41,648 nucleotides of DNA, from the IMG/VR virus record IMGVR_UViG_2609459832_000005. One strand, 5' to 3'. The position numbers and the translations under genes were made by a program. The notes below the pieces were generated by a model. That model was not told the origin of the DNA and searched no databases. It was given only the letters and a program-made list of their open reading frames with translations. Of this stretch, positions 1-38,833 are shown piece after piece. Source of the stretch: a virus (taxonomy: Duplodnaviria; Heunggongvirae; Uroviricota; Caudoviricetes). Numbering within the stretch: position 1 is the stretch's first letter; the number at the start of each line of letters is the position of its first letter.

Positions 1-101
1 TGCTGTTACGTTTTGCTTTCAGCTGGATTGTGCAGTTCTGTACCGGTTTTCCTGTGCCGTCTTTCAGTACACCTGAAATCTTTACTGCCATATTCACCCC
101 A

Positions 102-129
102 CAAAAAAGCCCGCCTGAACCGGCGGGCT
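102..129 (-). terminator. Rho-independent terminator downstream of lom
   Basis: 8-bp stem AGCCCGCC/GGCGGGCT (108-115 / 122-129) with 6-nt loop; on the minus strand it is followed by a U-run (plus-strand A-run 103-108), directly 3' of the lom stop. Confidence 0.6.
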
Positions 130-155
130 GTCATAACACTGTGTTACCTGGCTAA

Positions 156-6384: not shown

Positions 6385-6714
6385 CTATGCCACGACCTGT
6401 TCAAAATCTGCCGTTATGGTTACCCACAGCGCCCCCACGCTTGCCGACCATTTACGACAAACCACCCTAATCGGCTTCCAGTCATAAGGTGGCGTCCACT
6501 GAAATGCGCGGACGCCACCGTGCCGTTCCAGAAAGGCTTTCAAAGATGGGTGTTCACATTTACGAACACGTATCGTCACGCTGTAAGTCGACAACTGGTT
6601 ATTCAGTCCCACCGCACGACGCTGTTCATAACCATCGCCCAGCTTCACTGTCACCACTTTCGGCTCTGATACCACATTCATATCCGGGCGCACTTTCCAG
6701 TGAAACGTCTCCAT
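6385..6714 (-). CDS. M: Minor tail protein M
   Basis: 109-aa ORF (same length as lambda gpM) immediately after the tape measure gene. Confidence 0.8.
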   Translation of the reverse strand: METFHWKVRPDMNVVSEPKVVTVKLGDGYEQRRAVGLNNQLSTYSVTIRVRKCEHPSLKAFLERHGGVRAFQWTPPYDWKPIRVVCRKWSASVGALWVTITADFEQVVA

Positions 6715-9700
6715 TACCGATATGCTCCACTTAACCGACCACCATCACGGGCCTGCTGTTGCATAAAGTCCGCTGCCGCTTTTTTCCCGAGGTCATAAAC
6801 CACCTTCAGGGCAGCCGGACCTATCTGCCCGTTCGTGCCATCGTTATTGATCTCGATGTTGTACTGCGGGGCAAACATCGCCATACCTGAACCACCAATA
6901 TCCGCCACAACCCCCAGCTTACCGTCAGCACCACGACGCAGAGGCAGAATGGCTTCAGGCCCAGCTTCCCCCATCACACCTGCACCTTTTGCAAAAGCAA
7001 AAAACGTCGGACGGTTAACCACCGTGCCACTGTAGCGACTCAAATCAGCAGACTGATAAACACCACCATCAGCATTGGGCGTCACACTGGCAGTTGCTGC
7101 ACTCCCCCAGCCAAACGCCGAACCAATCCCCTTAACTGCCTGCATCATGGACATCTGAGCCATGATTTTTGCCAGATCAGAAAGGAGCGAGGCGGTAAAA
7201 GATTTGAAGTTCAGTTTTCCGGTGGTACAGAATGTTGCCAGTGCATTACCTGCACTATTAAATGCCGCTGTAAGCATCTGCTCCGCAGTGCCTGCCGCAT
7301 TATCCGCATCTGCCGTGAAATTCTGAAACGCCCGCATGGCACCGTTTTTCCAGTTACCCTGAGCAATTTCAAGCTGTTGCCAGTAACGGCGATTCTCATT
7401 CAGTTGCCTGTTCAGGCTCTCCGTCAGCGCCTGCTCGGCCTTTCTGTAGTCATCCGTGTTATATGTCCCTTTCTGCTCACTATCCCGCCTCAACTGCTCC
7501 AGCTGTTGCTGGTATTTCTGGCGAAGGCTCAGTTGTACCTGATATCGCTGCCGCTGCTGATCACCCATACCCACCGTGGCGATATCCAGGTCATGTTGCT
7601 GACGCTGAGCGCGCTCTTCTTCAGCCAGTTGACTGGTCAGCTGAATTGTTTTTTTCTTCAGATCGTTGAGTGCCGTCTGTTTCTGAAGCTCCTGCTGTTT
7701 TACATCCAGCAGCGTCAGTGCCTGAATCAGTTCATCTTTACGGGCCAGCACACTCTTTTCATCTGCCGTCAGCTTTTTCCCGTCCAGGTCGCTGATGCGC
7801 TGCTGCAGAGCCAGAAGCTGTTTATGCGCTTCTGTCATCCTGTCAGTGGCAATGCCTGCTGACTGTCTGGCAGCAGCAATCTGCCCTTCCACCTGTGCCT
7901 GTTGCTGGCTGTACTGCAGCAATAACCGGGTGGCCTCATCATTACGGGTTTCGCGTGTTTTTTTCTTACCGGATGCCAGGGCTTTCTCGTAACGTTCATT
8001 TTCACGTTGTATCGCCGCATCCCTGACAGCCTGATCGGCGTACTGCATGGCATTAATACGCGCAATTTCACGCTGATGTCGTGCTGCTTCCGTTTCATTC
8101 ATCCGGTTCAGTGCAGCATTTTCAGCATTACGGCGTTTCTGTTGCTCCTGATAATTCCGCTCTGCCTGCTCTTTTGCATCCTGCAAATCCTTCTGGCGTT
8201 TTTTCTCCTGAAGCTCGTTAAGACGCTGCTGATCGTATTCAACCTGAGAAGATGATGCCGTCCAGGGGAGTCTTTTCGCCCGCGATACTTTCTCCTGCAA
8301 AGTGGCAATCTGCGCATCCAGCGAATCTTCACGACCAATATTCATGGCCGCATCCCAGAACTGCTTCCACCAGTCAGACAAGGTTTGCAGCGTACTACCC
8401 AGCGCATTGAGGTTATTATCAATATCCGCAGTACGCCGACCGGTTTCCTCTGCCAGTGCAGACATGGCTATCCGTGCCGCATCACTGGAGCGCCCCTGCT
8501 CTCCAAGGACGCGTATCTGCTCAAGCTGAGTGGCAGTAAGAAAATGCAGCTCATTGTCCAGAGCCTTCGCGGCATTTACAGGATCATCCTTCAGCCGCTT
8601 AAACTGATTTATGGTATCGCTGACCGACTGGCCAACCGATCGCTCCATCTGTGCGGCAGCTCTCGCCACCATACCGATATCGTTTCCACGAAATGCACCA
8701 CTCCCCACCACCTGAGCCAGCGCACCGGCTGCAACATGTTGCGTGATACCATTCCCGGAAATAGCACGACTGAGCGTCCACAGCTGCCCGGCAGTGACTC
8801 CGGCATAATGCCCCGTCAGCGACAGCTGGCGGTTAAATTCTTCCCCCTCCTTCTGACCGTCATACCAGGCTTTACCCAGACCATAGACGGCCGCGGTAAT
8901 ACCGCCAATAACCCCGCCCAGCATCATGCCTTTCGGTGACATCAGTGTGTCTATCCATCCGGCACGGTTAGCCAGCGTTATCCCGGATCCCCTCAGCGCC
9001 CCTAAATTGCCGCGGGCCAGTTCACCTATCAGAACGCCTATCTCCTGGCGGGCCGCTGCACTTTTCAGACCCAGCGAATGCGTGGCTTTTCCTGCCCGCT
9101 CCATTTTGCGGATATACACTTCTGCAGCACTGCTTACCCCCAGCTGGGCAGCCCTGGCACGAAGCAACTCAGAAGAAGAAAGATTCTGGCGGGTTGCCTG
9201 CTCTTTAAGCTGACGGATAAACGCCACTTTCTGTCGGGTAGCCTCTGCCTCAGCCTGCGTAAGAACACGGGTTTTCGCCGTAACCTCAGAAATCAGCGCC
9301 AGATAATCCTGCTGACCAATCCCGCCACTGTTTCTGGCCTGTCGGATCTGCTGCTGAATACGCTGTAACTCCTGCAACCCCGCACTGGCCTGTTTCACAC
9401 TGTCAATCTGACGATAAAACGCGGCAGCCGCTTTATCCTGAGCCTCCGCCAGAGCCATGGCCTGTGCCTGTTCCTCGCGCATTTTCTGGCTCAGTGCCTC
9501 CATACGCTGGCGGGTTTGCTCCACCTCGCGGGCCATGCGTTCATGAGCCTGTGCGCTCTTCTCCACCGTCTGCGCATGGACGGATGCGGCTGTTGCAGCC
9601 GAAGAAGCCGCCTGCATTGTCTGCCGGGCGGCCTGAGTCTGACGCTCCATAAAACGCTGCATACGGGCAGAAGACCGTTCTGCATCGCTGGCTGCACCAT

Positions 9701-9788
9701 TCAGAAGGTTTTTGATACGGGGAATTTCATTTTTAAACTCTGCCGCATCAATCCCCAAATCAATGACCAGGTTGGCTATCTGGTCCAT
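6714..9788 (-). CDS. H: Tail tape measure protein H
   Basis: ~1024-aa largely alpha-helical, Q/R/E/A-rich protein; likely start MDQIANLVIDLGID (internal to the 1034-aa track ORF); C-terminal ..NNDGTNGQIGPAALK.. resembles lambda gpH. Confidence 0.9.
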   Translation of the reverse strand: MDQIANLVIDLGIDAAEFKNEIPRIKNLLNGAASDAERSSARMQRFMERQTQAARQTMQAASSAATAASVHAQTVEKSAQAHERMAREVEQTRQRMEALSQKMREEQAQAMALAEAQDKAAAAFYRQIDSVKQASAGLQELQRIQQQIRQARNSGGIGQQDYLALISEVTAKTRVLTQAEAEATRQKVAFIRQLKEQATRQNLSSSELLRARAAQLGVSSAAEVYIRKMERAGKATHSLGLKSAAARQEIGVLIGELARGNLGALRGSGITLANRAGWIDTLMSPKGMMLGGVIGGITAAVYGLGKAWYDGQKEGEEFNRQLSLTGHYAGVTAGQLWTLSRAISGNGITQHVAAGALAQVVGSGAFRGNDIGMVARAAAQMERSVGQSVSDTINQFKRLKDDPVNAAKALDNELHFLTATQLEQIRVLGEQGRSSDAARIAMSALAEETGRRTADIDNNLNALGSTLQTLSDWWKQFWDAAMNIGREDSLDAQIATLQEKVSRAKRLPWTASSSQVEYDQQRLNELQEKKRQKDLQDAKEQAERNYQEQQKRRNAENAALNRMNETEAARHQREIARINAMQYADQAVRDAAIQRENERYEKALASGKKKTRETRNDEATRLLLQYSQQQAQVEGQIAAARQSAGIATDRMTEAHKQLLALQQRISDLDGKKLTADEKSVLARKDELIQALTLLDVKQQELQKQTALNDLKKKTIQLTSQLAEEERAQRQQHDLDIATVGMGDQQRQRYQVQLSLRQKYQQQLEQLRRDSEQKGTYNTDDYRKAEQALTESLNRQLNENRRYWQQLEIAQGNWKNGAMRAFQNFTADADNAAGTAEQMLTAAFNSAGNALATFCTTGKLNFKSFTASLLSDLAKIMAQMSMMQAVKGIGSAFGWGSAATASVTPNADGGVYQSADLSRYSGTVVNRPTFFAFAKGAGVMGEAGPEAILPLRRGADGKLGVVADIGGSGMAMFAPQYNIEINNDGTNGQIGPAALKVVYDLGKKAAADFMQQQARDGGRLSGAYR

Positions 9789-12286: not shown

Positions 12287-12562
12287 TTACTCAATAAAGA
12301 TCATTGGCTTACCGTTAAAGCGTTCATGCCGTGTGACCGTCCATTGTTGTCCGTCATAAACAACGCGATCCCCGCGCCGTGGGCGGTATCCCGAAGAAAA
12401 CACCACCAGAGAGACCGCAGGTCCGGACAGAGCATTCAGCTCTGCCAGTGTTTCTCCCGGGATCACGGTCATATCGACATCATTAATCGAGGCTGTCTTT
12501 CCCATCTTTCTGACCGTGATAGCATCCATACGCGCTGCCAGCCGGGAAAAGGGATCAGACAT
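12287..12562 (-). CDS. Head-tail connector / head completion protein (FII-position)
   Basis: 91-aa ORF between the capsid-associated genes and Z; synteny only, no motif recognised. Confidence 0.45.
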   Translation of the reverse strand: MSDPFSRLAARMDAITVRKMGKTASINDVDMTVIPGETLAELNALSGPAVSLVVFSSGYRPRRGDRVVYDGQQWTVTRHERFNGKPMIFIE

Positions 12563-12964: not shown

Positions 12965-14923
12965 TTACGCCGTACATTTCACCAGACCGCGGTGATCAAC
13001 GGGCGCGACACCGGCGTCAATACGCACTTTCGTTGTCACGCCATCCACACTGAAGCCTTCCATCTGATCAATATATGGCGTATCCACACCGTTGAGATAA
13101 GCCACTTCAATCGTATCGGAGCCTTTTGACGCAGCCAGGTAGAAGGTGGTCTGGCTGTTATCATCAAGACGGGGCTCTGCAATAACGGTCGCAAAATCTT
13201 TCACCGGGTTAATAATACCGGCGTTAATGTCAGCCCCCTTGACACTTGAGGAGCGAATGACCTGGTTAGCAACAGACTCCATCGCCGTCGGTACCAGTAC
13301 GAACGCAGGACGAATATTCAGATGACGCTCCCCCTCTTTCTGAACGCGCATCAACTGGCGGGCTTTATCCAGCGATGCCACGTCCATTGCAGCGCTCTCC
13401 AGTACGTTTGCATGTTTCGCTTTATCGAACAGACTTACATTATCTGTGGAGATTTTCGGGTTAGACGTCAGAATGGCATAAACCAGATCGGCAATAGTGG
13501 ATTTCGCCGCACGGCCCAGTTTCATCGGGACATCGGTCAGCATATTCAGATCATCATTGATAATGGCCTGACGGGTGATACTGAACAGCTCGCCATAGGT
13601 CGCCAGTGCAATAGTGGCCTGTTTATCTCCGGTGGTGACGTATTTATATTCCGCCCCTTCACGCACCTGACGCAGAGCACTGAAGCCCCCCATACCCACA
13701 CGATGGGCAATTTTAAAATCAGACAACTGACCTTTCCGCGTCCACTGTTCATAGGTTTCAGGGGCATCTTCCCAGCCCTGCAGAATGGCTTTGTTCGCAA
13801 CATCCAGCAGAATATTACCGAAGTCAGACGTACTGTGTGTGAACGCCGCACCGACCATCTGCATCGGGTTATAACTGGAAACCCCAATACCCCGTTCAGT
13901 CAGTGACATACGGGCATATTCACGCAGGGTCATCCCGTTGTAGACATTATCACGTTCGTTTTTTTCAAATCCGGCACGCGCCATCAGCGCCTGGCGGATC
14001 CCGTCCCCCACAAAATTACCGTTTCCGGCATAAATATGAGCCGGGGTATTTTTATTGGATGGCGTGGACTCGCGCCCCATCTCGTTCAACAGCTTTTCGC
14101 GGGCCTGCTCCAGCGAACATTCAGGATCGGCAAGACACTGAGCCTGCAGCGTCTGATAACGCCCGCCAAACATGGCAAACAGATCATTAATACCGTTTAC
14201 ACGCGCTTTTTGCTCTGCCAGTACCTGCGCACGGATACTGTTTTCATCCACCACGGGTGCTGCTGCCTGCACTGGCGTCCGGGAGGCTGCAGGTTCATCA
14301 TCCTGTACGCGTGGAGCACTGTTGCGTGGCGGAGTAATCATGTTTCGAATGGATTCCGGCATCTTTTTAAATTCCTCTGTACGTTTTGACTGAATACATG
14401 CCATTGCCTTAACGGCTGGCGTCACCTGATCAGCAAATCCCTGTGCCAGACATTCGGCACCGGACATCCAGGTCTCATCCGCCAGCATGGCAGCAATTTC
14501 ATCGGTGGTTTTCCCGGTTTTCTGTGCATAAGCGGGTAACAGAACCGCCTCAACCTTATCGAGCAGGTCGGCATAGGTGCGCATGTCCTCCGCATCACCG
14601 CCCGTAAAGCCAAATGGTTTATGAATCATCATGAAGGTGTTTTCCGGCATAATGACCGGGTTTCCCACCATCGCAATGACCGACGCCATTGACGCCGCCA
14701 CACCGTCGACATAAACGGTAATGGACGCACCATGTGTTTTCAGCGCATTAAAAATGGCGATGCCTTCAAAGACATCGCCACCCGGTGAATTAATATGGAG
14801 ATTAATGTGGGTGATATCGCCCAGTGCATTCAGATCACTGATAAACTGCTTCGCTGTAACACCCCAGAAACCAATCTCGTCATAAATATAAATATCCGCG
14901 TCACTCTGGTGACCAGCCTGCAT
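12965..14923 (-). CDS. Prohead protease (ClpP/S14-like) fused to HK97-fold major capsid protein
   Basis: N-terminal region has ClpP-type motifs (INSPGGDV; GVAASMASVI); long C-terminal region in the capsid position; likely start MQAGHQSDADIYIYDEIG.. (652 aa) overlapping the portal stop; track ORF is extended upstream. Confidence 0.75.
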   Translation of the reverse strand: MQAGHQSDADIYIYDEIGFWGVTAKQFISDLNALGDITHINLHINSPGGDVFEGIAIFNALKTHGASITVYVDGVAASMASVIAMVGNPVIMPENTFMMIHKPFGFTGGDAEDMRTYADLLDKVEAVLLPAYAQKTGKTTDEIAAMLADETWMSGAECLAQGFADQVTPAVKAMACIQSKRTEEFKKMPESIRNMITPPRNSAPRVQDDEPAASRTPVQAAAPVVDENSIRAQVLAEQKARVNGINDLFAMFGGRYQTLQAQCLADPECSLEQAREKLLNEMGRESTPSNKNTPAHIYAGNGNFVGDGIRQALMARAGFEKNERDNVYNGMTLREYARMSLTERGIGVSSYNPMQMVGAAFTHSTSDFGNILLDVANKAILQGWEDAPETYEQWTRKGQLSDFKIAHRVGMGGFSALRQVREGAEYKYVTTGDKQATIALATYGELFSITRQAIINDDLNMLTDVPMKLGRAAKSTIADLVYAILTSNPKISTDNVSLFDKAKHANVLESAAMDVASLDKARQLMRVQKEGERHLNIRPAFVLVPTAMESVANQVIRSSSVKGADINAGIINPVKDFATVIAEPRLDDNSQTTFYLAASKGSDTIEVAYLNGVDTPYIDQMEGFSVDGVTTKVRIDAGVAPVDHRGLVKCTA

Positions 14924-14936
14924 CCTGAACCAGGAA

Positions 14937-16445
14937 TTAATCTTCGGACTGGTCGTCGGTGTGCTGCGGCTCCTGTCGTTTCGTTGCGGCACTGCTGCCT
15001 CCTTTATCACTGGCCGGATCGGTATCAAATACCAGATCCAGCTTGCGGTTTTCATCAATTTCGGCCTTGCGCCGACGTTTGACATCATCCGGATTACGAC
15101 CACCAGCACGTACCCAGTCTGATTCTGTCGCCGCTCCACCACGAATCTGGATTTTCCAGGCCTCAGCCTCCTTAACAGGGTCAATCCACGGCATCACTGG
15201 TCCGGAATACACCGCGGTATACAGTGAAGAACGGTCAAGATCGCGGGGTAGCCTGATAACACCGGATGCCACAGCCTGTTTCAGCCATGCACGATACATC
15301 GGGCGGGTGACGGCACCAATAAACCAGTCCTGCAGGATCAGGTAGCCATCAGTGGATTCAACCAGCTCCTGACGCTGGGCGCTGTAAGTGCCGTTATAGT
15401 TGCGCGCCGTACTGGAAAAACTCAGACGACTGCCCGCCGCCACGGCACGCAACTGACCATTACGAAAAGTTTCAAGGTTAGGATTGGGGCGATCCGACTT
15501 CACCATTCCGATTTCTTCGCCGGGTTTCAGATCGTCGTAAATAATGCCTGGCTGAATGGTAAGCTCGCGTTCCTTATCCTTGCTGCCATTACCATCCGGT
15601 TCATAGCTCTGCCCGTCGCCTTTGCGGATGTACATCCCCAGAGCAGCGGCGATCCTTGCTGCAGTCAGCTCATAATCTTCATAATCTTTCAGGGCACTGA
15701 GGCGGATCAGCACACCGGACAACAAAGACGTCCCGCGCATCTGGTGCAGACGGCGAACAAATTTAAGATGCAGCATTCGCTCTGCATCCACTTCTTTGGT
15801 TTCCATCTGCCGTCCGGATACGGGACGGCTTTTATACACCAGATATTTTTCGGGACGCCCCCAGTCATCAACAAACACGCCCTGATTCAGCCTGTTGCTC
15901 TCATCACTGGTCATGGGAATAAAGTCTGGCTCGAGCGCCTCCAGCCAGAAATGAACACCGGCAGAAGGCGTCAGGCTGTTTATGCGCCCGGAAACCATCT
16001 GGGCAAACACCTCACCATCGCGCAGCCAGGTACGCAGCATCAGACGTTCCAGCATCGGACGGGTAAACTGCCCGGTGACTTCCGGGCTGACAGACCATTC
16101 ACTCCATCGGGTGCGAATCTCCGCTGCCAGATCACGGGCAATGGCCCCATTGCGTAATACCGGATGTGGCTCGACAATAATCCCGTTTTTCCCCACCACC
16201 CGTTCTTCCAGCTTGTCAAATACACCAATAACCAGATCGTGGTTGTTATCAAGGTAACGGGCCTGCTCACGTAACGACACGGCCCCGTACTGGCTTAGCT
16301 GGTCGGCAGTTCGGTTCTCCCGTCGGGCTTTGTGTGTCCGCGTCGTTTTTACGGCTTCATAAGCCTGGATCACCGCACGGGAACGCAGCCTTGCCGCTTT
16401 CCATCCAGGTGAAAAAACGCCAATCACATCATCAAGAATTGCCAT
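14937..16445 (-). CDS. Portal protein (lambda gpB family)
   Basis: ~502-aa ORF between W and the protease-capsid gene; likely start MAILDDVIGVF.. whose ATG overlaps the W stop (TGATG arrangement); size and synteny with lambda B. Confidence 0.8.
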   Translation of the reverse strand: MAILDDVIGVFSPGWKAARLRSRAVIQAYEAVKTTRTHKARRENRTADQLSQYGAVSLREQARYLDNNHDLVIGVFDKLEERVVGKNGIIVEPHPVLRNGAIARDLAAEIRTRWSEWSVSPEVTGQFTRPMLERLMLRTWLRDGEVFAQMVSGRINSLTPSAGVHFWLEALEPDFIPMTSDESNRLNQGVFVDDWGRPEKYLVYKSRPVSGRQMETKEVDAERMLHLKFVRRLHQMRGTSLLSGVLIRLSALKDYEDYELTAARIAAALGMYIRKGDGQSYEPDGNGSKDKERELTIQPGIIYDDLKPGEEIGMVKSDRPNPNLETFRNGQLRAVAAGSRLSFSSTARNYNGTYSAQRQELVESTDGYLILQDWFIGAVTRPMYRAWLKQAVASGVIRLPRDLDRSSLYTAVYSGPVMPWIDPVKEAEAWKIQIRGGAATESDWVRAGGRNPDDVKRRRKAEIDENRKLDLVFDTDPASDKGGSSAATKRQEPQHTDDQSED

Positions 16446-16657
16446 CAGAACCTCGCCAGCCGGTACCCGGGATGCCCCCGTCGTCGTGTAATCAGAGCCG
16501 CAAGGCGGCGCTCCCACTCCTGCCGTCCCTGCCGGATCTCAGATAAGTTTTCCATGGTCATCTGCTGACCATTAAAGGTGACGGATTTTCCGTCCAGCAC
16601 CGCCATTTCAGCTTACGTATAACGCTGAATCATGGCTTCGATATCATTCTGGTTCAT
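16445..16657 (-). pseudogene. Head-tail joining protein W-like gene with in-frame TAA at codon 15
   Basis: ATG at 16655-16657 overlaps the terminase stop (ATGA) and is preceded by GGAGG; reads MNQNDIEAMIQRYT-TAA-AEMAVLDGKSVTFNGQQMTMENLSEIRQGRQEWERRLAALITRRRGHPGYRLARF; with the stop this is ~70 codons, close to the 68 aa I recall for lambda gpW. Confidence 0.5.
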
Positions 16658-18756
16658 AACCATCCTCCGGAAGTTAGCCAGGGATTAACATCGTCAGTTA
16701 CTGTTTTCTTCCGTTTTTGTTTTTTAACAGGCGTGGATACCGGTTCCGGTGAGGGTGACGGTTCGGTACTGTCCGGGACACACTCCAGCCAGGTTTCCCT
16801 GCTCGCCCACTCCGGTGCATCCGGCCAGCGGATCTTTTCGTATCCATGCAGAATGACCAGAGCCTCGGCATACACCATCAGGTCAAAAGCTTCGTTGGCA
16901 CCGCGACCCGGCTTACTCCATTTCCCGTCACTGCTCCGCTCTTCATACGTCAGTTCGTCGTAAAACCAGCTCCCCAGCCAGTCAGGGAAATGCACATAGC
17001 CGGGACCTGGCGAGTCACGCCATAACGCGTTATTCACCCGGTCTTTCAGTGCATCCGTCTGAAGAAGCCAGAGCGGCACATCACCTGCGGCCTGCGCCCG
17101 TCGGCCCGTTCGTCCGGTGTTATCAGGGAATGTACGGGTGATCAGTTTTGCGCGCCGGATGCTGTCGCCCTTAAACAGGTAAATACGTTTACCAAGGCCA
17201 TCACGACGGCAACGACGCCAGAATTTATAGGCATTATCAGTGACCCCGTCTTCACCGCCGGAGTCCACCGCCATTGCCATCAGTCGCATTTGTTGAGAAG
17301 GATCGGAGGCCAGCGGCCAGCTTTTATGAAAAACATCCGTCAGCAGGACATCCCAGTCTTCCGGATAGCTGGCCGGATCAATTCGCTGGCTCTCCCCGTC
17401 GCTGTCACCGCGCAATGACTGCGTGATGTTGTAACGATCAATAATCCAGCGTTCGCCACGGCTGCCATAGCCCGTTACCTGAACCACAAAACGGCGATGA
17501 CGTCCCGCCTGCACATCCACTGTCGCCACAAGGAAATTAACGCCATCCGGCACACTGCGGGAAGGAACTGGCTCTGCCCGCTGCTCAAGCAGTTCACTTT
17601 TTCGTTGCTCCATGCTGGCGCGGGGAAGATAAGGTAATCCCCAGTCGGTATTGATAACCGTCTTGAGTGTTTCTTCACTTCCGGTTGTCTCGTATTCCTG
17701 TTCTGCAGTAAGCAGTTTGTAAACGAGTTGCGAGAGTGTCTGGTAAGCAGCTGCCGGACCCTCCATCCAGAATGACGCAATACGTGAGCGTCGGGGATCA
17801 CCATAACGACTGCCATCCGCATTGATGGATTCACCATCCCGCAACCAGACCCCACGTCCGTTCAGCTCACGTTTGTGTTCAGGCATAATCCGTCCTGAAC
17901 AGGAAGGACACTGAATATAAGCCGCCTCACTTGCCAGCACGGGATCGGCAATATCACGGAAACCAGCAACCACATCGCCGCAGGGCTGAAAATACTCACC
18001 ACAGTGTGGACAGGGCCAGTACCAGCGACGGCGATCACCACGGTTATAGAGCGACAGGATCCCCGTGGTTGGTGGAGCCTCATGCGGTGAAGTCCGTCGC
18101 CATTTCACATCCTTCACATCCCTGCCGGGGGAACTCTCCACCAACGTCATACCGCTGGACATAAATGTGGTGGTACGTTTTGAGGCAAGAGAGAAGGCAT
18201 CCCCCTCGCCATCAATATCTTCCGGAAAACGGTCATAATCCGTCAGCGCGACGCATTTATAATCTGATGAGGACATGATATTGACTGACGGCCAGCCGAT
18301 TTTCAGGTAGTTGCCAGCAAGGAATGTTCTGTCATAAACGTTGTTGTCATTTTTGTTCGGACTCAGGCGACTGACCACTTCCGGGCTGACGCGAAACGTT
18401 CTGGCGAGTCGTTTTTTGGAGTGTTCGCGGGCTTTTTCCTCCGTCATCTGAATGATCAGCATATCAGCAGGATCGCAAATCACGTTGTAAATCACCCAGC
18501 CGTCAATCAGGCCGATAGTCTTGCCGGTTCGTGCCGGGCCAACAAATATCACTGCGTCGTATTCACGCGAGGCCAGGCAGTTCATCGGCTCAATAACATA
18601 CGGTGCCACCAGCGGATCCCACGGGACTGAGTTCCCGGCCCCCATGGGCACCCGCATATACTGAGCAACGGCATCAGCAACCCGCATTCGTCTCGGTGCG
18701 CGAAGGATATAACCTGAATCGGTTCGTGCTGCCTTTGCGGTTTCCTGATTCAGCAT
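16654..18756 (-). CDS. Terminase large subunit (lambda gpA family)
   Basis: 700-aa ORF with Walker A-like GPARTGKT near the N-terminus, Cys-rich CPHCG..CPSC segment; located between terminase small subunit and W/portal. Confidence 0.9.
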   Translation of the reverse strand: MLNQETAKAARTDSGYILRAPRRMRVADAVAQYMRVPMGAGNSVPWDPLVAPYVIEPMNCLASREYDAVIFVGPARTGKTIGLIDGWVIYNVICDPADMLIIQMTEEKAREHSKKRLARTFRVSPEVVSRLSPNKNDNNVYDRTFLAGNYLKIGWPSVNIMSSSDYKCVALTDYDRFPEDIDGEGDAFSLASKRTTTFMSSGMTLVESSPGRDVKDVKWRRTSPHEAPPTTGILSLYNRGDRRRWYWPCPHCGEYFQPCGDVVAGFRDIADPVLASEAAYIQCPSCSGRIMPEHKRELNGRGVWLRDGESINADGSRYGDPRRSRIASFWMEGPAAAYQTLSQLVYKLLTAEQEYETTGSEETLKTVINTDWGLPYLPRASMEQRKSELLEQRAEPVPSRSVPDGVNFLVATVDVQAGRHRRFVVQVTGYGSRGERWIIDRYNITQSLRGDSDGESQRIDPASYPEDWDVLLTDVFHKSWPLASDPSQQMRLMAMAVDSGGEDGVTDNAYKFWRRCRRDGLGKRIYLFKGDSIRRAKLITRTFPDNTGRTGRRAQAAGDVPLWLLQTDALKDRVNNALWRDSPGPGYVHFPDWLGSWFYDELTYEERSSDGKWSKPGRGANEAFDLMVYAEALVILHGYEKIRWPDAPEWASRETWLECVPDSTEPSPSPEPVSTPVKKQKRKKTVTDDVNPWLTSGGWL

Positions 18757-19250
18757 TACTCCTCCTGCTGTAATTCCTCCTCATCATCCGCACCTGCTTC
18801 AGTCACCCGCAGGGCTATCTGATCGCGCAGATCATCAATAATGGACTGAACACGGCTCACAGCGGCAGGCTGCAGACCGCAGTCACGTTCAAGAATATCC
18901 GGTAATGTCTCCAGCACCTGCACGACCGCTTTTGCCCAGATGGCAAACTCCCGTCTGACATCACTGGCCGGAATGAGTTGTGCCGTTTCCTGTTCGAACT
19001 TAAGACGCTCACGTTCAGACTGATACCAGGCTTTGCGCTCATGCGCGTCCATTTCGCCTTCTGCAACCGGCGGTGGTAATGCCAGAAATGCCGACACAAT
19101 ATCAACCACCCGATAAAGCTTGAGGTTGCTTTCATGCCCCCCTGCAACGGGTAGATTTTGCAGCCTTGCCGCAGCAGTCTGGCGATGTACACCTGACAGT
19201 GCCGCCAGTTGACTGATATTCAGCGTCAGATTTTTTAACTCTCGATCCAT
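18756..19250 (-). CDS. Terminase small subunit (Nu1-like, HTH)
   Basis: 164-aa ORF with N-terminal helix-turn-helix (LNISQLAALSGVHRQTAAARL), acidic C-terminus, immediately upstream of and overlapping the large subunit, just downstream of a cos-like site. Confidence 0.75.
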   Translation of the reverse strand: MDRELKNLTLNISQLAALSGVHRQTAAARLQNLPVAGGHESNLKLYRVVDIVSAFLALPPPVAEGEMDAHERKAWYQSERERLKFEQETAQLIPASDVRREFAIWAKAVVQVLETLPDILERDCGLQPAAVSRVQSIIDDLRDQIALRVTEAGADDEEELQQEE

Positions 19251-19404
19251 ACCCGCTCCAGAATGTTTTAAACATGCATCTTGCGAACAACTTTAGGCAA
19301 ACGGTGTTAGTGATGAACAAAAAATAATCAAAATCGACACCATAAAAATAAAACCACTGTAATATCAATATATTACGGTAGTGGTGATGACGAATGAAAT
19401 TTCA

Positions 19405-19445
19405 AAAACTAGCCTTTTTCCGCGACGCTCCCGCCCCGTGGCAGG
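19405..19445. other. cos-like cohesive-end site (cosN candidate) upstream of terminase
   Basis: Minus-strand sequence GGGGCGGGAGCGTCGCGG (plus 19421-19438) resembles the lambda cosN region CGGGGCGGCGACCTCGCGGG as I recall it, at the expected position ~170 bp upstream of the terminase small subunit start. Confidence 0.4.
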
Positions 19446-19703
19446 CCACCCCACCGGAAGGACCCGCCAAAATGAGAGTGATTATCACCATTGCTGATGA
19501 ATAAATTGATGAAAATCATTGAAACGCCTTTCAGCAAGATAACGGCGACGGTCGTTGTTGAACTCCGTAACTCTGCTACTAAGGTTAAAAGCATGGCCAT
19601 CTTTTGCCACCGGCAAATCTTCAATGGATTTCCCCTGCCGGTTTTTTATTCCTCACATTATCGCAGCCCCTCAGTGAAGGGCTGCTGTAATGCCTGCTGT
19701 TAC

Positions 19704-21330: not shown

Positions 21331-22383
21331 TTATTTCCCCACCAGCTCGTTTATCTCTTTCACTGTCTGGTTAAACCGCTCTGACTCAAGCTCAACACCT
21401 AAGGCCCGACGCCCCAGCGCCATTGCTGCTTTTATTGTGGAACCGGATCCCATAAAAAAATCAGCAACCAGATCACCAGGTCGACTACTGGCATTGATTA
21501 TTTGCCGGAGCATATCCGCAGGTTTCTCACACGGATGTTTACCCGGGTAGAACTGAACGGGTTTATGCATCCAGACATCGGTATAAGGCACGGAGACTGA
21601 TACGGAGAAATAGCGCCGGAGAGATTTAAACTCATCCAGCAATTCAGAATATTTGCGATTCAGTGAATCATAAGATGCCACCAGCTGGTGGTGTGGTTGT
21701 TCCAGTTGTTGTTCCTGAAACTTCTCTGCCGCTATACGGGAAAACAGTGCCTGTAACTTCCGATAGTCAGCCTCATTCGGCAACTGCCACTGACTGGCAC
21801 CAAACCAGTGGGAAACCATATTTTTCTTACCTGTGGCTTCGGCAATTTGTTTTGCCGTTATACCCAGTTCGGCACGAGCATCCCTGAAATACGATATCAG
21901 CGGTGCCATTATGTGCTGTTTGAGTTCCCTTTCTTTTGCCGCATAGCCGTCACTTTTGCCGCGATATGGCCCCTGGTAATGTTCAGCAAACAGAACGCGC
22001 TCTGTGGCAGGAAAATATGCGCGCAGACTTTCTTTATTACACCCATTCCAACGTCCGGACGGCTTCGCCCAGATGATATGGTTAAGCACGTTGAAACGTT
22101 CACGCATCATGATCTCAATATCAGATGCCAGGCGATGTCCACAGAACAGGTAAAGGCTTCCGGCTGGTTTCAGTACCCGCCAGAACTGGGCCAGACAGTA
22201 GTCCAGCCACTTCAGGTAATCTTCGTCCCCTTTCCACTGATTGTCCCAGCCGTTGGGCTTCACTTTGAAGTACGGCGGATCGGTAACAATCAGATCAATG
22301 GAATCATCAGGCAAGGACTGAATAAAATGCAGGCAATCAGCGTTGATTAAATCAACACTGTTTATTTTTACAGTATTTTTCAT
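21331..22383 (-). CDS. DNA amino-methyltransferase (beta-class N6A/N4C MTase), orphan
   Basis: 350 aa; motif IV TDPPY near the N-terminus and motif I FFMGSGST near the C-terminus (permuted beta-class order); no adjacent restriction endonuclease candidate. Confidence 0.8.
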   Translation of the reverse strand: MKNTVKINSVDLINADCLHFIQSLPDDSIDLIVTDPPYFKVKPNGWDNQWKGDEDYLKWLDYCLAQFWRVLKPAGSLYLFCGHRLASDIEIMMRERFNVLNHIIWAKPSGRWNGCNKESLRAYFPATERVLFAEHYQGPYRGKSDGYAAKERELKQHIMAPLISYFRDARAELGITAKQIAEATGKKNMVSHWFGASQWQLPNEADYRKLQALFSRIAAEKFQEQQLEQPHHQLVASYDSLNRKYSELLDEFKSLRRYFSVSVSVPYTDVWMHKPVQFYPGKHPCEKPADMLRQIINASSRPGDLVADFFMGSGSTIKAAMALGRRALGVELESERFNQTVKEINELVGK

Positions 22384-23037: not shown

Positions 23038-23970
23038 ATGACTACGACAGCCACTTCCGCGCCACTAACTAAACAAAAAAAAATGCGTATCGGTTTCTTC
23101 CAAAGCTCCTCAGGAACGAAGTCAACTACATCAAATGCACAACTTGCATTTGACAACATGTATACAACCATTGTTACACCTTCGCAAAATTCTTATACCG
23201 CTGAGTTTGATAAGAAAAAATTAAAGATTGTATTCTTAGAAAAAGACGCACAGGCGGAGTTCTATTTTGGTTATCTATCATGCTCTCGTGATGGTTTCCA
23301 CTTACCTTATATTGGTGATGAAAATTGGGATGAGCACAATATTCCGTTAGATGATAAAAAATATATAGTCGAACGCACTTATTTTATTTACTACTATAAG
23401 AAAGACATTCTTGTTTTATCTCAAAATCATTTAGGACCTAAAGTTTCCGATTTAGCATTTCTTTTATTCAATTTTTCTGAAGAAAACAAACCTGTAGCGT
23501 TTGAGGCAATTTGGAAAAAAGAAAGTGTAAAAGAACTACTTGAAACAGGAAGCACTTTACGTAGCTGTGAAATTACACTCGCCGCTCCACGTAATTTTAG
23601 CGCAACGGATTATGACCTTTCGAATTCATTTTCCAAAAGTATGATTGAAATGATGGCTGGGATGGGCGGTTCGCATTTAAAACTATCACTTAGAGGTAGA
23701 GCATCGCAACGTAAATTAATCCGTGGTTATCTCAGTGATGAAGTAAAAAGTGGAATAAAGGAATTAATAGAAAAAGTTCCTCACTTATTACGTAAAGCTA
23801 ATGTCACTGAACCTAAAAATACTCATTCAAGGAGTCTTCTCAATCAAGTTCTGATCAGTGAAAAAAACATTAACACAAAAGATGGCTACGCAAAAGAAAC
23901 AGATGTGCGTACTGCCTTGATCAGTGCTAAAATTGAACATGGTCAGTATTTAAAGCAATATGAAATCTGA
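23038..23970 (+). CDS. AT-rich cargo protein A, 310 aa, soluble; candidate sensor component of a two-gene exclusion/defence cassette
   Basis: Long ORF on the strand opposite to all surrounding phage genes; markedly lower GC than flanks; no NTPase or nuclease motif recognised; weak local resemblance (LGPKVSDLAFLLF) to a lambda RexA segment as I recall it. Confidence 0.6.
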   Translation: MTTTATSAPLTKQKKMRIGFFQSSSGTKSTTSNAQLAFDNMYTTIVTPSQNSYTAEFDKKKLKIVFLEKDAQAEFYFGYLSCSRDGFHLPYIGDENWDEHNIPLDDKKYIVERTYFIYYYKKDILVLSQNHLGPKVSDLAFLLFNFSEENKPVAFEAIWKKESVKELLETGSTLRSCEITLAAPRNFSATDYDLSNSFSKSMIEMMAGMGGSHLKLSLRGRASQRKLIRGYLSDEVKSGIKELIEKVPHLLRKANVTEPKNTHSRSLLNQVLISEKNINTKDGYAKETDVRTALISAKIEHGQYLKQYEI

Positions 23971-23984
23971 TCTTATTTTTAAGG

Positions 23985-24437
23985 ATGATGATTATGCTTA
24001 TTAAAGTTTTAATTAACATAGTTATCAGTGGGCTGTTAGCTTGGGTGCTTGGGAAATACCTAGCGCCTATGGCTCACTCTGATATCTTAAGTACAGCCGG
24101 AGTGTTATCTACGGTGGCAGGCATTTTGTTTGGTTTTGTATTGGCCGCTATTTCCATCTTCAGTTCTGCAAGTTCAAGTACTGATGGAATTATTTTTGCT
24201 TTAAAACAAAACAAGATTTTACCTAAAATTATTCATAACCTGTTATCTACGGGAGTTACCTTAATATTAGCATGTATTTTCCCGCTGATAGCAATGTTTA
24301 TAAATGAAAAAATCACCATTACCTCTGTAAGACTTGATTTCGCCCTAACCTTATATGGTTTCTCGACCCTGATCGTATCAATAGTTTCATTTGCAAGTAC
24401 CTGGAGGAAAATAAACTGGATATTACCCCACATATAA
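23985..24437 (+). CDS. AT-rich cargo protein B, 150-aa integral membrane protein (about 4 TM helices); candidate membrane effector
   Basis: Four hydrophobic stretches (VLINIVISGLLAWVLG; VLSTVAGILFGFVLAAISIF; LLSTGVTLILACIFPLIAMF; LTLYGFSTLIVSIVSFAS); 14 bp downstream of protein A, co-oriented; size and topology like lambda RexB. Confidence 0.65.
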   Translation: MMIMLIKVLINIVISGLLAWVLGKYLAPMAHSDILSTAGVLSTVAGILFGFVLAAISIFSSASSSTDGIIFALKQNKILPKIIHNLLSTGVTLILACIFPLIAMFINEKITITSVRLDFALTLYGFSTLIVSIVSFASTWRKINWILPHI

Positions 24438-24480: not shown

Positions 24481-24843
24481 TTAATCCATATCTAAGCTAA
24501 CATTTAGAATAGCTAGACAACCTTCTATAAATCCCTCAGCCATCTGTATCTCAATGCGTATTATTTTCTCATCCTTTTTACGAGCTTTAGCGAGCTTTCT
24601 TTTAGAGATACCGTATAGGTAATGGGCAACAAGAAGCGAGTGTTCTTCAGGTCTTTTTTGCTTTAGACGAGCAAGACAACCTTCAATAATTAATGCATCA
24701 CTATCTGAACAAGCCTGACGTGTTTTGCTTGTATAGGGAAGAAGCCCTTTAAACCCAGCAGCTATAGGCGAATAGTCTACCCCAGAACTATCACTCGCCG
24801 CCCATGCACCCCAACGATCCAGAACCATCTGAATATCACGCAT
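24481..24843 (-). CDS. Late-gene antiterminator Q (small Q family, QuuD-like)
   Basis: Likely start MRDIQMVLDRWGAWAA.. (120 aa), which matches my recollection of E. coli QuuD; Cys-containing region SDSDALIIEGCLARLK; last gene of the early-right cluster. Confidence 0.75.
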   Translation of the reverse strand: MRDIQMVLDRWGAWAASDSSGVDYSPIAAGFKGLLPYTSKTRQACSDSDALIIEGCLARLKQKRPEEHSLLVAHYLYGISKRKLAKARKKDEKIIRIEIQMAEGFIEGCLAILNVSLDMD

Positions 24844-24860
24844 CAACTTTCTCCACAAAA

Positions 24861-34530: not shown

Positions 34531-34749
34531 GTGGAGAAACATATGCTGAACCTCGATTGTGTTCCTATCTCAACTTATTGCAAAGAAACTGGCGAAACTC
34601 CTGAAGCAATAAACAAACGTGTACAGCGCGGTGTTTGGCGTGAAGGTGTTCAGGTTTTAAAGGTTGAAGGCGTTAAGGAGAGGTGGATTGATCTTAGTGA
34701 GGTTGCAAAATGGGCCAGACAAAACTGCTCAAACTACCGCGCGGCGTAA
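34531..34749 (+). CDS. Excisionase-like small DNA-binding protein
   Basis: 72-aa ORF immediately upstream of and overlapping the integrase gene; probable winged-helix region (INKRVQRGVWREGVQVLKVEG). Confidence 0.5.
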   Translation: MEKHMLNLDCVPISTYCKETGETPEAINKRVQRGVWREGVQVLKVEGVKERWIDLSEVAKWARQNCSNYRAA

Positions 34750-35879
34750 CAATCAGAAAACACCGTCAGGGAGAAACGATCAATATAACTTTCACCTACA
34801 AAGGAGTTAAATGTCGTGAGCCACTTTCCAATCTGGAAGTAACACCAAAGAACATTAAATACGCCGAGCGTACACTCGGCGAAATTCATAATAAGATCGA
34901 AAGGGGAACATTCATTTATGCGGAATATTTTCCCCGTTCTGCTCGTTTGAAAATTTTTGGTAATGCTGCTGCAGGCAAAACGGTAAAAATGTACCTGGAC
35001 GAATACCTTGAAATCTGCGAAACGAGAAAACTTTCACCATCTACGATTGGTGGTTATAAAAAATGCCGTAGTGCGTTAGCCTCACTCCACATTTGCCCTG
35101 CAAGTGAATTAACACCAGCAATCCTGAAAGCGTGGATTCAAAGCCAGAAAACGACCTTAAAAACAATTCGCAACCAGTTATCTTTCCTGCGGTCAGCACT
35201 TGATGAAGCCGTAACCGATGGGGTACTTCAAATTAACCCCGTATCGTTGGTAACTGCTTCGCGCTACCAAAGTGATAAGTCAGAAGCAGAAAGCAGCTAC
35301 ATGGTTGATCCGCTATCACCAGCAGAAGTTGATGCATTACTAGCAGCAGCCGGAAACAAACAATGGGAGAATCTGTTCCGGTTCGCTATACATACAGGCC
35401 TGCGTAGTTCTGAATTATGTGCCCTTCGATGGCGTGATATCGACTTTGTTGGAAAAACTGCCCATGTCCAGAGCGCAAGTGTTGTCGGTGTTATCAAAGG
35501 AACAAAGACAAAAGCCGGTACTCGTAAAGTCGAACTGACAGAAGATGCAATGTTGGCGCTGATAAATCAGAAGCCATTTACATTCATGAAGGATGCTACA
35601 GTCTTTGAAGATCCAAAGACCAATAAGCCTTGGGCAAGTGCTGATGCAATTAGAAAAAAAGCATGGGTGCCAACATTGCGGAAAGCAGGTATTCGTTACA
35701 GAAACCCATATCAAACCAGACATACATTCGCCACCAGCCATATCAGCCGGGGAGCAAACCTGTTTTGGCTTGCGGTTCAAATGGGTCATAAAGGACCAGA
35801 GATGTTATTTAGACATTATGGCTCATACCTCAAAGAATATGATGGAAATACATCTTTAAATAGAAAAAATAGATATTAG
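34710..35879 (+). CDS. Lambda-type tyrosine integrase
   Basis: 389 aa; N-terminal arm-binding-type region (LPRGVTIRKHRQGETINITFTYKGVKCRE), C-terminal catalytic region with R..H..R..Y pattern (RHTFATSHI.. LFRHYGSYL); oriented toward the attachment-site copy at 37357. Confidence 0.85.
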   Translation: MGQTKLLKLPRGVTIRKHRQGETINITFTYKGVKCREPLSNLEVTPKNIKYAERTLGEIHNKIERGTFIYAEYFPRSARLKIFGNAAAGKTVKMYLDEYLEICETRKLSPSTIGGYKKCRSALASLHICPASELTPAILKAWIQSQKTTLKTIRNQLSFLRSALDEAVTDGVLQINPVSLVTASRYQSDKSEAESSYMVDPLSPAEVDALLAAAGNKQWENLFRFAIHTGLRSSELCALRWRDIDFVGKTAHVQSASVVGVIKGTKTKAGTRKVELTEDAMLALINQKPFTFMKDATVFEDPKTNKPWASADAIRKKAWVPTLRKAGIRYRNPYQTRHTFATSHISRGANLFWLAVQMGHKGPEMLFRHYGSYLKEYDGNTSLNRKNRY

Positions 35880-35911: not shown

Positions 35912-36601
35912 TCATATCAATGTATGTTGAATAGAATAATTTTCAACACCATAATGAGATGCTAATTTTGATAAAAAACCATCCTTTGAAGATAAAACAT
36001 CATCTAACATATTTCGTCTTACTAAAGAGACAAAAAGTGCAGCTGCTCTGGCTTGGCAATTAATAGATTTCGCTGGATTAAATTCAATATCAGTAAACCC
36101 ATCAAAATTTAATAGATGGAGTGCTAGATTTTTGTTTTGATTGAGCGCACTCAAATATAACCAATCATAAAAAGCAGTCCTGGGGACAATGGGCCATATT
36201 GTATTATAAAATTTGAAGTTAACTAATCCCCCAGATTCCTTTAATCTCATATCTTTTTTTGCTTCTATCGAGCTTTTATCTAAGATATCGACATATGGTC
36301 CTCCCATTTCAAATACTTTACTTGCTTGAAATGCAGATTCAACTGTAAACTCTTTCCCAAGTCTTTTCGTCTTTATTCTTAGATTAAATGCACTAAGTGC
36401 TACCCCCAGCGCATCTTCGGATTTACTAGAAATTTCCAACAAAGAGTTCAATCCCTGCTCATTCGCTGCTGTATGTAACGCCCTGATCGATTTTTGCTTT
36501 TGCGTTTTAGACATACCAGGAGCCCAAGGAAAATCCACATCCTTCGTGATCGATAGTAAGTTCCCTGCGTTTGTAGGGACGAAAACAGGTCTAACAGCCA
36601 T
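35912..36601 (-). CDS. Uncharacterised 229-aa partner of the DarT-like gene (candidate antitoxin/immunity protein)
   Basis: Start codon 3 nt after the DarT-like stop with AGGA SD (translational coupling); AT-rich; no macrodomain or NADAR signature recognised. Confidence 0.6.
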   Translation of the reverse strand: MAVRPVFVPTNAGNLLSITKDVDFPWAPGMSKTQKQKSIRALHTAANEQGLNSLLEISSKSEDALGVALSAFNLRIKTKRLGKEFTVESAFQASKVFEMGGPYVDILDKSSIEAKKDMRLKESGGLVNFKFYNTIWPIVPRTAFYDWLYLSALNQNKNLALHLLNFDGFTDIEFNPAKSINCQARAAALFVSLVRRNMLDDVLSSKDGFLSKLASHYGVENYSIQHTLI

Positions 36602-36604
36602 AAC

Positions 36605-37228
36605 TTATCCTAAATAATAATGCCTCTGAGAATAAAGTGTTCTAGCATTAAGATTATCATAATATCTCTGTATTGTCTGTGGATATAATCTCTTGAAATG
36701 TTCAGCAGATTCTTTGTTAGGGTGAAAAGTGCTTATAATATATGAGGGAGGAATTTTTTCAAATACCAGTATTTCAGCTTGAACATCCGTCGTATACTCA
36801 CTTGGAAGGTTTACATCTCTCTGAATCCCAAAAACATTCTCTGAAAACAAAGCACTAAATGCCTCAGCTCCTTTCATCAAATCAAGATTTATAAAACGAA
36901 CGTTATTCGAAGCTGCGTTGGTAGGATAAAAAGCGCAATCCTTAGCCCAAAGAACAGATGGATTGATTTCTAATATAACCCAGTCCCCAGGCTTTAAACA
37001 TCTATATTTATAAAACATTTTTGCATTAGGGTAACTTACGGACAAACAAATCGCATCTGGATGACCATCAATCCTTTCTTCATCATTACAATTATATTCA
37101 TTATTTTCATTATCAAGTTCTGAACGAGACATAAGGCCATTATCTAAAATGGAAGTTAGATTATCGCTATGTGTAAAATGAAACAAGCTACGAATATTAC
37201 GTTGCTGAATTATTTCCTGTATTGTCAT
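36605..37228 (-). CDS. DarT-like ADP-ribosyltransferase (DUF4433 family) candidate toxin
   Basis: 207 aa; N-terminal signature FHFTHSDNLTSILDNGL (DarT hallmark [YF]H.TH.DNL..IL..G.L) and C-terminal QAEILVF resembling the catalytic-Glu motif (AEFLV) of DarT, both as I recall them. Confidence 0.6.
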   Translation of the reverse strand: MTIQEIIQQRNIRSLFHFTHSDNLTSILDNGLMSRSELDNENNEYNCNDEERIDGHPDAICLSVSYPNAKMFYKYRCLKPGDWVILEINPSVLWAKDCAFYPTNAASNNVRFINLDLMKGAEAFSALFSENVFGIQRDVNLPSEYTTDVQAEILVFEKIPPSYIISTFHPNKESAEHFKRLYPQTIQRYYDNLNARTLYSQRHYYLG

Positions 37229-37591: not shown

Positions 37592-38833
37592 ATGGCAAGA
37601 CAAACCAAACCTCTATCCGTTAAAGAAATAGAATCAGCCAAACCCAAGGAGGCGGACTACGTTCTCTATGATGGCGATGGCCTTGAGCTACTCATTAAAT
37701 CCAGCGGGAGTAAAATCTGGCAGTTTCGCTACATTCGCCCTGTCACCAAGAAACGAGCAAAGAAGAGCATAGGCTCCTACCCGTCAGTTACCCTTGCCGA
37801 TGCCAGAAACTACCGTGCAGAGTCCCGCTCACTACTGGCTAAACAGATCGATCCGCAGGAACATCAGCAAGAACAATTGCGCAGTTCGCTGGAAGCCAAA
37901 ACCAACACTTTCCAACTCGTAGCTGAACGTTGGTGGAATGTGAAGAAAGCCAGTGTGACAGAGGACTATGCGGAAGATATCTGGCGCTCTCTTGAAAGAG
38001 ACGTCTTTCCTGCGATTGGCGACGTTAGCGTTACAGATATTAAAGCTCATACACTGGTTCAGGCCGTACAACCGGTTCAGGCCAGAGGAGCACTGGAAAC
38101 TGTTCGTCGCCTGTGCCAACGTATTAATGAGGTCATGATCTATGCCCAGAACACAGGGCTGATTGATGCTGTTCCCAGCGTTAATATCGGTAAAGCCTTC
38201 GAGAAGCCTCAGAAAAAGAACATGCCCAGCATTCGACCGGATCAGCTACCTCAGTTAATGCAGACGATGCGAACAGCCAGCATTAGCCTTTCCACACGCT
38301 GCCTGTTCATGTGGCAACTTCTTACTATTACCCGCCCTGCCGAAGCGGCTGAAGCTCTCTGGGAAGAGGTAGACATAGAAGCGCGAGAGTGGAAGATTCC
38401 TGCAGCACGCATGAAAATGAACCGCGACCATACTGTTCCATTGTCAGATGAAGCAATTGCGATACTAGAGATGATGAAGCCGTTAAGTGGAAATCGAGAA
38501 TTTATCTTTCCCAGCCGCATCAAGCCAAACCAGCCGATGAACAGTCAGACCGTAAACGCATCGCTAAAACGCGCAGGTTTTGGTGGGGTGCTCGTTTCAC
38601 ACGGCCTGCGATCTATCGCCAGTACAGCCCTTAATGAGCAGGGATTTCCACCTGATGTTATTGAGGCTGCACTTGCTCATGTGGATAAGAATGAGGTTCG
38701 TCGTGCGTATAACCGTAGTGATTATCTTGAGCAGCGACGGCCTATGATGCAGTGGTGGGCTGATTTTGTGATGGCTGCAGATCACGGTAGTATGATTGAA
38801 GGAGGGATAAAGGCAATGCGGTTAGTTGGATGA
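37592..38833 (+). CDS. intA: P4-family tyrosine integrase (IntA-like, ssrA-associated)
   Basis: 413 aa; N-terminal KPLSVKEIESAKPKEADYVLYDGDGLELLIKSSGSKIWQFRY typical of P4-type integrases; C-terminal R..H..R..Y catalytic pattern; immediately downstream of the ssrA 3' end copy as in E. coli CP4-57. Confidence 0.9.
   Translation: MARQTKPLSVKEIESAKPKEADYVLYDGDGLELLIKSSGSKIWQFRYIRPVTKKRAKKSIGSYPSVTLADARNYRAESRSLLAKQIDPQEHQQEQLRSSLEAKTNTFQLVAERWWNVKKASVTEDYAEDIWRSLERDVFPAIGDVSVTDIKAHTLVQAVQPVQARGALETVRRLCQRINEVMIYAQNTGLIDAVPSVNIGKAFEKPQKKNMPSIRPDQLPQLMQTMRTASISLSTRCLFMWQLLTITRPAEAAEALWEEVDIEAREWKIPAARMKMNRDHTVPLSDEAIAILEMMKPLSGNREFIFPSRIKPNQPMNSQTVNASLKRAGFGGVLVSHGLRSIASTALNEQGFPPDVIEAALAHVDKNEVRRAYNRSDYLEQRRPMMQWWADFVMAADHGSMIEGGIKAMRLVG

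Follow-up and report, generated by a model that had tools for sequence, protein, structure and literature searches.

An apparently strain-private ochre codon that probably inactivates the head-tail adaptor gene of an otherwise intact lambdoid prophage of Escherichia coli

We conclude that a recent G-to-T change, seemingly confined to one strain, has probably converted the Glu15 codon (GAA) of a small head-tail adaptor gene into an ochre stop and inactivated the gene, which would leave the prophage that carries it with no working adaptor and at the earliest stage of prophage decay. The window, by which we mean the whole 41,648-nt stretch of DNA that was analyzed, is one entire draft contig, JHDP01000033.1, of E. 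coli assembly GCA_000601275.1, and it is the only place in which we found the TAA allele. Judged from its sequence, the prophage is an mEp460/cdtI-like lambdoid E. coli prophage that is otherwise intact. The adaptor gene has the attributes of a pseudogene, that is, an in-frame stop where intact homologs under selection have a sense codon, and no conserved alternative start.

The interrupted frame and its neighbors

The minus strand around the start of the gene reads ...CCGGAGGATGGTTATGAACCAG..., and translation of 16657-16445 on that strand gives MNQNDIEAMIQRYT, the ochre stop, AEMAVLDGKSVTFNGQQMTMENLSEIRQGRQEWERRLAALITRRRGHPGYRLARF and a terminal stop, which is to say 14 sense codons, TAA and then 55 further codons in the same frame (Table 1). 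The large-terminase stop (TGA, 16656-16654) and the start of the W-like frame (ATG, 16657-16655) overlap as ATGA, and the frame ends in a TGA (16447-16445) whose final A doubles as the A of the portal ATG. When we re-read and re-translated the window, the coordinates given in the original prediction were right in every case; GGAGG is the Shine-Dalgarno (SD) sequence of the frame. A mechanical list of open reading frames (ORFs) contains only the 53-aa remnant (16445-16606) at this location.

That the W-like frame is not a product of chance follows from the four E. coli genomes we fetched, because all four carry the same 213-nt CDS, annotated as the 70-aa protein WP_001072975.1 and labeled either "hypothetical protein" or, in RefSeq for some genomes, "DUF6148 family protein"; it is within this annotated frame that the TAA reported at codon 15 lies. 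In the alignment all four CDSs read GAA at codon 15, where the window reads TAA, and in three of the four comparisons the first base of that codon is the only one that differs, which implies a G>T transversion that produced the ochre codon. The proposal that the stop was a point nonsense mutation is thus borne out, as a GAA>TAA change within an otherwise conserved 70-codon CDS. Furthermore, the comparison with homologs that had been suggested as a check gave a sense codon at this position throughout: Glu in the fetched relatives, and Glu, Asp, Gln, Asn or Ala in 34 close homologs.

Table 1. Coordinates of the adaptor gene, its translation signals and the neighboring neck genes in the window
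Feature	Coordinates	Strand	Remarks
W-like head-tail adaptor gene (DUF6148 / PHROG 118)	16445..16657	-	70 codons + stop; ochre-interrupted; pseudogene
TAA (codon 15)	16613..16615	-	GAA (Glu) in relatives; G>T on the coding strand, C>A on the + strand, position 16615
Shine-Dalgarno GGAGG	16664..16668	-	6 nt 5' of ATG 16657-16655; anti-SD duplex -9.5 kcal/mol
In-frame ATG (codon 18)	16604..16606	-	6 nt past the TAA; possible reinitiation, giving a 53-aa fragment without residues 1-17
Large terminase subunit (GpA type, 700 aa)	16654..18756	-	Intact; TGA overlaps the W-like ATG
Portal protein (lambda gpB type, Phage_portal_2, 502 aa)	14937..16445	-	Intact; ATG 16445-16443; own SD, -7.1 kcal/mol
91-aa Gifsy-2-family protein	12287..12562	-	Intact; PF13856 1.8e-17, weak gpFII (Phage_attach) PF05354 0.0018

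The genes in this part of the window run in the order DUF1441 small-terminase-like gene, GpA-type large terminase, 70-codon gene and Phage_portal_2 portal, and the order in lambda is nu1-A-W-B, in which W overlaps A by ATGA and B overlaps W. The same synteny (Nu1-like / GpA / DUF6148 / Phage_portal_2) is found in a metagenomic member of the family with 42% identity. Four genes downstream of the adaptor lies the gene for the 91-aa Gifsy-2-family protein, which is probably its partner in head closure, and the combination of an adaptor with a gpFII-like gene downstream fits a neck of the lambda type, where a small adaptor of non-Ad1 type is followed by an Hc1 (gpFII-like) protein (PMC4362835).

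Two other features of this neighborhood were observed. A gene for a fusion of a ClpP-like prohead protease and the major capsid protein (12965-14992, minus strand, 675 aa) shares 56 nt with the 3' end of the portal gene, an overlap also annotated in relatives; unlike in lambda, scaffold and major capsid protein have no genes of their own. On the 5' side of the small terminase gene, 19243-19485 (minus strand) has a weak match (56% identity) to a small hypothetical protein of PhiR40_1 and contains a stop; it is probably a non-coding cos region or a remnant, and no gene is annotated there in the close relative PapRG-04-4.

Relationship of the adaptor to lambda gpW

The original prediction called this gene W, and its position and size agree with that name, as it occupies the slot between a GpA-type terminase and a Phage_portal_2 portal with overlaps at both ends and encodes 70 residues, compared with 68 in lambda gpW. 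Membership of the gpW family, by contrast, did not stand. BLASTP gave no alignment between the adaptor and lambda gpW, a Pfam scan of the adaptor gave no match to PF02831 (gpW) at E<=1, HMMER against the PDB returned nothing significant linking the two, and hhalign gave non-significant probabilities of 6.6%, 4.8% and 0.8% (two alignments); direct homology to gpW was rejected on these grounds. The hhalign alignments are nevertheless in register, including a shared C-terminal RRRG-x-PG-[FY]. Fold searches did not retrieve gpW and were uninformative.

The affiliations of the protein lie elsewhere. Its match to phrog_118 ("head-tail adaptor") has an E value of 8.5e-37 and places residues 1-70 on positions 3-72 of the 76 in the profile; lambda gpW belongs to phrog_75 and grazes phrog_118 (E 0.031). 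Against Pfam DUF6148 (PF19645) the repaired protein scores 19.3 bits, below the 27-bit cut-off, so that the E. coli subfamily itself sits under the Pfam threshold, and 26 of 59 aligned distant relatives match DUF6148 at E<=0.01, the best at 1.4e-10. AlphaFold2 models (pLDDT 73.8 and 80.9) predict a helix (residues 3-21), a beta-hairpin (26-33), a second helix (35-60) and an extended, basic C-terminal arm, the same order of elements as in gpW within the virion, where the corresponding segments are helix 4-22, hairpin 23-36, helix 37-54 and C-arm 55-68, subunits of the 12-mer ring contact one another through the two-helix bundle, and attachment to the portal is by the C-arm (PMC10721106).

That the adaptor works like W has good probability, inferred from its position, its PHROG annotation and the predicted secondary structure; no significant sequence similarity links the two proteins. 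The adaptor cannot be shown to belong to the gpW family, and the name "W" expresses a positional, and probably a structural, analogy.

The stop codon and alternative readings of it

If the adaptor gene has been inactivated, is it the only casualty in this prophage? The late region of the window is 98% identical to prophages of many E. coli genomes. The full 213-nt gene is present in the related viable phages mEp460, Ayreon, phi458, cdtI and PhiR40_1; WP_001072975.1, which occurs in these phages and in many E. coli prophages, is identical to the translation from the window at 69 of 70 residues and has the same neighborhood, the TAA at codon 15 being found in the copy of the window alone. When 21 late proteins of a close relative were compared with the window by tblastn, 20 were full-length and free of stops and frameshifts, and the deviations consisted of an in-frame 6-codon indel in the tape-measure gene and the stop in the W-like gene, with no others. 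Early genes with recognizable homologs are full-length relative to PhiR40_1 and to the same-site prophage of LT2-3. Across the late and the recognizable early genes (about 50), we found no further lesion that would mark the prophage as already dead. The ochre codon is therefore the sole detectable lesion and would, on this evidence, be the first inactivating change in this prophage and, to date, the only one.

Several additional features of the prophage and its surroundings deserve mention. The tape-measure gene (6714-9788, minus strand), with its in-frame length difference of six codons and 94.7% identity to the closest relative in a complete genome, shows ordinary variation. The left end of the window (1-155) breaks inside a side-tail-fiber gene, probably an assembly break at repeated tail-fiber sequence. 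A pair of genes for DarT (an ssDNA thymidine ADP-ribosyltransferase) and a DarG-like NADAR antitoxin (35912-37228, minus strand) lies between the prophage integrase (34710-35879, plus strand) and a second integrase (37592-38833, plus strand), and both proteins are 100% identical to the pair in the CP4-57/ypjA region of E. coli LT2-3. Adjoining the second integrase is a 750-aa ORF (38975-41224, minus strand) that has no Pfam match and is 99.7% identical to an LT2-3 hypothetical protein. A low-GC (~41%) insert of two genes on the opposite strand (23038-24437, plus strand), which encode a 310-aa DUF6731 / phrog_7651 protein and a 150-aa phrog_8552 protein, is located between the Q antiterminator gene (24484-24846) and a Dam-like methylase gene (21331-22383) and may be a moron or defense cassette.

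How widespread is the TAA allele? Of 5,426 complete E. coli genomes, 1,920 gave matches to the region by megablast, at 2,079 places in all and with one to five copies per gene-carrying genome (median 1). A 61-nt probe centered on the TAA matched 1,864 of the complete genomes at 2,012 places, none of them identical and the best at 98.4% (one mismatch). Exact 45- and 26-mers containing the TAA were absent from the GTDB representatives (one genome per species), and the 26-mer had no match in 2.9 million IMG/VR contigs; its GAA version was found in at least 120 IMG/VR contigs. From these searches the allele looks private to the strain. A shared or recurrent TAA allele was ruled out by its absence from the complete genomes, IMG/VR and the GTDB representatives.

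Disruption of the gene as such is not rare. The same 53-aa ORF has been called on other public contigs, and alignment revealed a different lesion in each: a +A frameshift (L013), another +A frameshift (L015), a -A frameshift (L016), GAA>TAA at codon 17 (L017), TAT>TAG at codon 13 (L018), an IS insertion (L011), and deletions or rearrangements (L010, L012, L019). Because the lesions differ from contig to contig, the stop in the window is, as far as these alignments tell, private and sporadic, one among many independent inactivations of the adaptor gene and no conserved feature. It also follows from the independent disruption of the 17 N-terminal codons in L010-L019 that database records of a 53-aa "hypothetical protein" from this gene represent pieces of disrupted copies and not a natural short isoform.

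Did the TAA arise in the sequencing or assembly of a draft contig, and does the real prophage have GAA and a fully functional adaptor? In favor of such an error, the allele is a singleton, JHDP01000033.1 standing alone among thousands of copies, and GCA_000601275.1 is a fragmented draft in which the window is one whole contig. However, the other ~40 kb of the window has no frameshift or stop in about 50 recognizable genes, which indicates that the assembly is not generally error-prone and that its consensus quality looks good, and consensus-level substitution errors are rare in short-read assemblies. The independent nonsense and frameshift lesions of the adaptor gene in other assemblies also argue that decay of this kind is real, and the contig is listed under two samples, albeit samples that are not necessarily independent. 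We therefore consider an error in base-calling or assembly unlikely.

Another possibility is that the mutation is real and null but has no effect on phage production, either because the DUF6148 protein is dispensable or because a co-resident copy complements it in trans. WP_001072975.1 is common to many different prophages, a single genome can carry up to five copies, and a literature search returned no paper on DUF6148, nor any on the source accession JHDP01. Dispensability is, however, difficult to reconcile with the conservation of the gene. All 34 close Enterobacteriaceae homologs (73-99% identity) start at the upstream Met, and in a broader alignment of 59 representatives extending down to 33% identity, E17 is the sole invariant residue, with conservation of 90% or more at Y13, A16 and L21. 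Among the copies in IMG/VR, 116 of 117 are intact and 112 of 117 encode an identical protein, and there are 17 distinct synonymous codon variants as opposed to four single nonsynonymous ones, all four in the C-terminal arm, codons 11-19 being fixed in this comparison by the search pattern. On the strength of these comparisons, the adaptor gene, N-terminus included, is under clear purifying selection, and this and its conserved synteny beside lambda-type portals argue against dispensability; as for complementation, the median copy number per genome is 1. A real mutation without consequence for the phage is accordingly, in our opinion, improbable.

Could the mutation be real but leaky, with reinitiation at codon 18 giving enough of the 53-aa product for some infectious phage? 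The in-frame ATG is close to the stop and 12 adaptor copies per virion suffice, and, according to a passage of PMC5972666 that refers to Adhin and van Duin (1990), bacterial ribosomes can scan more than 40 nt after termination and reinitiate. In the AlphaFold2 model the fragment would retain the hairpin, helix 2 and the C-arm. Nonetheless, the reinitiation described in that passage occurred at start codons with an SD-like sequence upstream, and the codon-18 ATG has essentially none (anti-SD duplex -1.1 kcal/mol, compared with -9.5 kcal/mol at the true start). The fragment would also lack most of helix 3-21 and with it E17, which is invariant, and Y13 and A16, which nearly are, and the equivalent helix of gpW forms the bundle and contacts between subunits of the ring (PMC10721106). 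Nor does Met18 have the marks of a start: the residue is Met, Ile, Leu or Thr in the 34 close homologs, and no natural short form is present among the 270 cluster representatives of the family that an exhaustive profile search produced. Homologs that begin at the downstream ATG, which the original prediction had named as the observation that would count against it, are absent from the 34 close and 59 distant sequences. The reinitiation it had proposed is thus possible in principle, but would take place at a start codon with no SD and yield a product deprived of most of helix 1, and we think it very unlikely that enough adaptor is made in this way. A natural 53-aa isoform was rejected as well, since all homologs start upstream, Met18 is unconserved and the 53-aa ORFs elsewhere stem from other lesions.

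Programmed or conserved recoding (readthrough, or a deliberately split gene), for which there is the in-frame continuation of the reading frame and nothing else, is in effect refuted because the stop is not conserved in any other copy examined; moreover, the other disrupted copies have different lesions at different positions, the RNA around the stop and the portal start does not exceed shuffled sequence in the stability of its fold (z = -0.35), and the window lacks tRNA genes.

Consequences for the phage

Inactivation of the adaptor by a recent, strain-private mutation remains the reading we prefer, and under it ribosomes would start at the ATG with the strong SD, make a 14-residue peptide and terminate at the TAA; in E. 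coli, a UAA with G as the next base terminates translation efficiently. Reinitiation 6 nt downstream, independent of any SD, would yield at most a trace of the 53-aa fragment, which would lack nearly all of helix 1 and the most conserved residues of the family. A suppressor tRNA carried by the prophage was considered and rejected, as the window, having no tRNA gene, contains no suppressor. We found neither a promoter on either strand nor a minus-strand terminator in the region, and no strong polarity on the portal gene is expected, given that this gene has its own SD and that a Q-like gene is present, the late operon presumably being Q-antiterminated.

What would become of the virion? Lambda cannot do without W (PMC10695390), on which retention of the DNA and addition of gpFII depend (PMC10721106, PMC4362835), and by analogy heads and tails would fail to join in the absence of the adaptor. 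We would expect the mutation in the window to behave as W nonsense mutations do in lambda, with induction giving DNA-filled heads and free tails that remain unjoined and few or no infectious particles. The earlier suggestion that this prophage may be unable to make infectious particles consequently gains support as a likely outcome, from the analogy with lambda and the truncation of an adaptor in the W slot. An intact copy may be present in another prophage of the same genome, and a co-resident prophage with an identical protein could supply the adaptor in trans.

The biology is that of ordinary early prophage decay. As in other lambdoid prophages of E. coli undergoing decay, a single inactivating point mutation has, in our reading, struck an essential-looking structural gene, and independent frameshifts, nonsense codons, IS insertions and deletions strike the same gene elsewhere; what differs is that the remainder of the prophage looks intact here, which would put it at a very early stage. 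A prophage that automated tools would score as intact thus probably cannot yield infectious particles without help, which is relevant to anyone inducing the strain or counting "intact" prophages, and has little bearing beyond annotation. For the family, it is reasonable to annotate DUF6148 as the head-tail adaptor that takes the place of gpW beside lambda-type portals, as PHROGs already does. We also put forward, as a tentative idea with a small chance of being correct, that the allele is real and that the prophage is a natural "W-minus" mutant, one that either depends on a co-resident adaptor as a helper or yields only DNA-filled, tailless heads. If this were true, such a "W-minus" prophage would be a natural genetic handle on DUF6148 as the gpW-equivalent adaptor for lambda-type portals.
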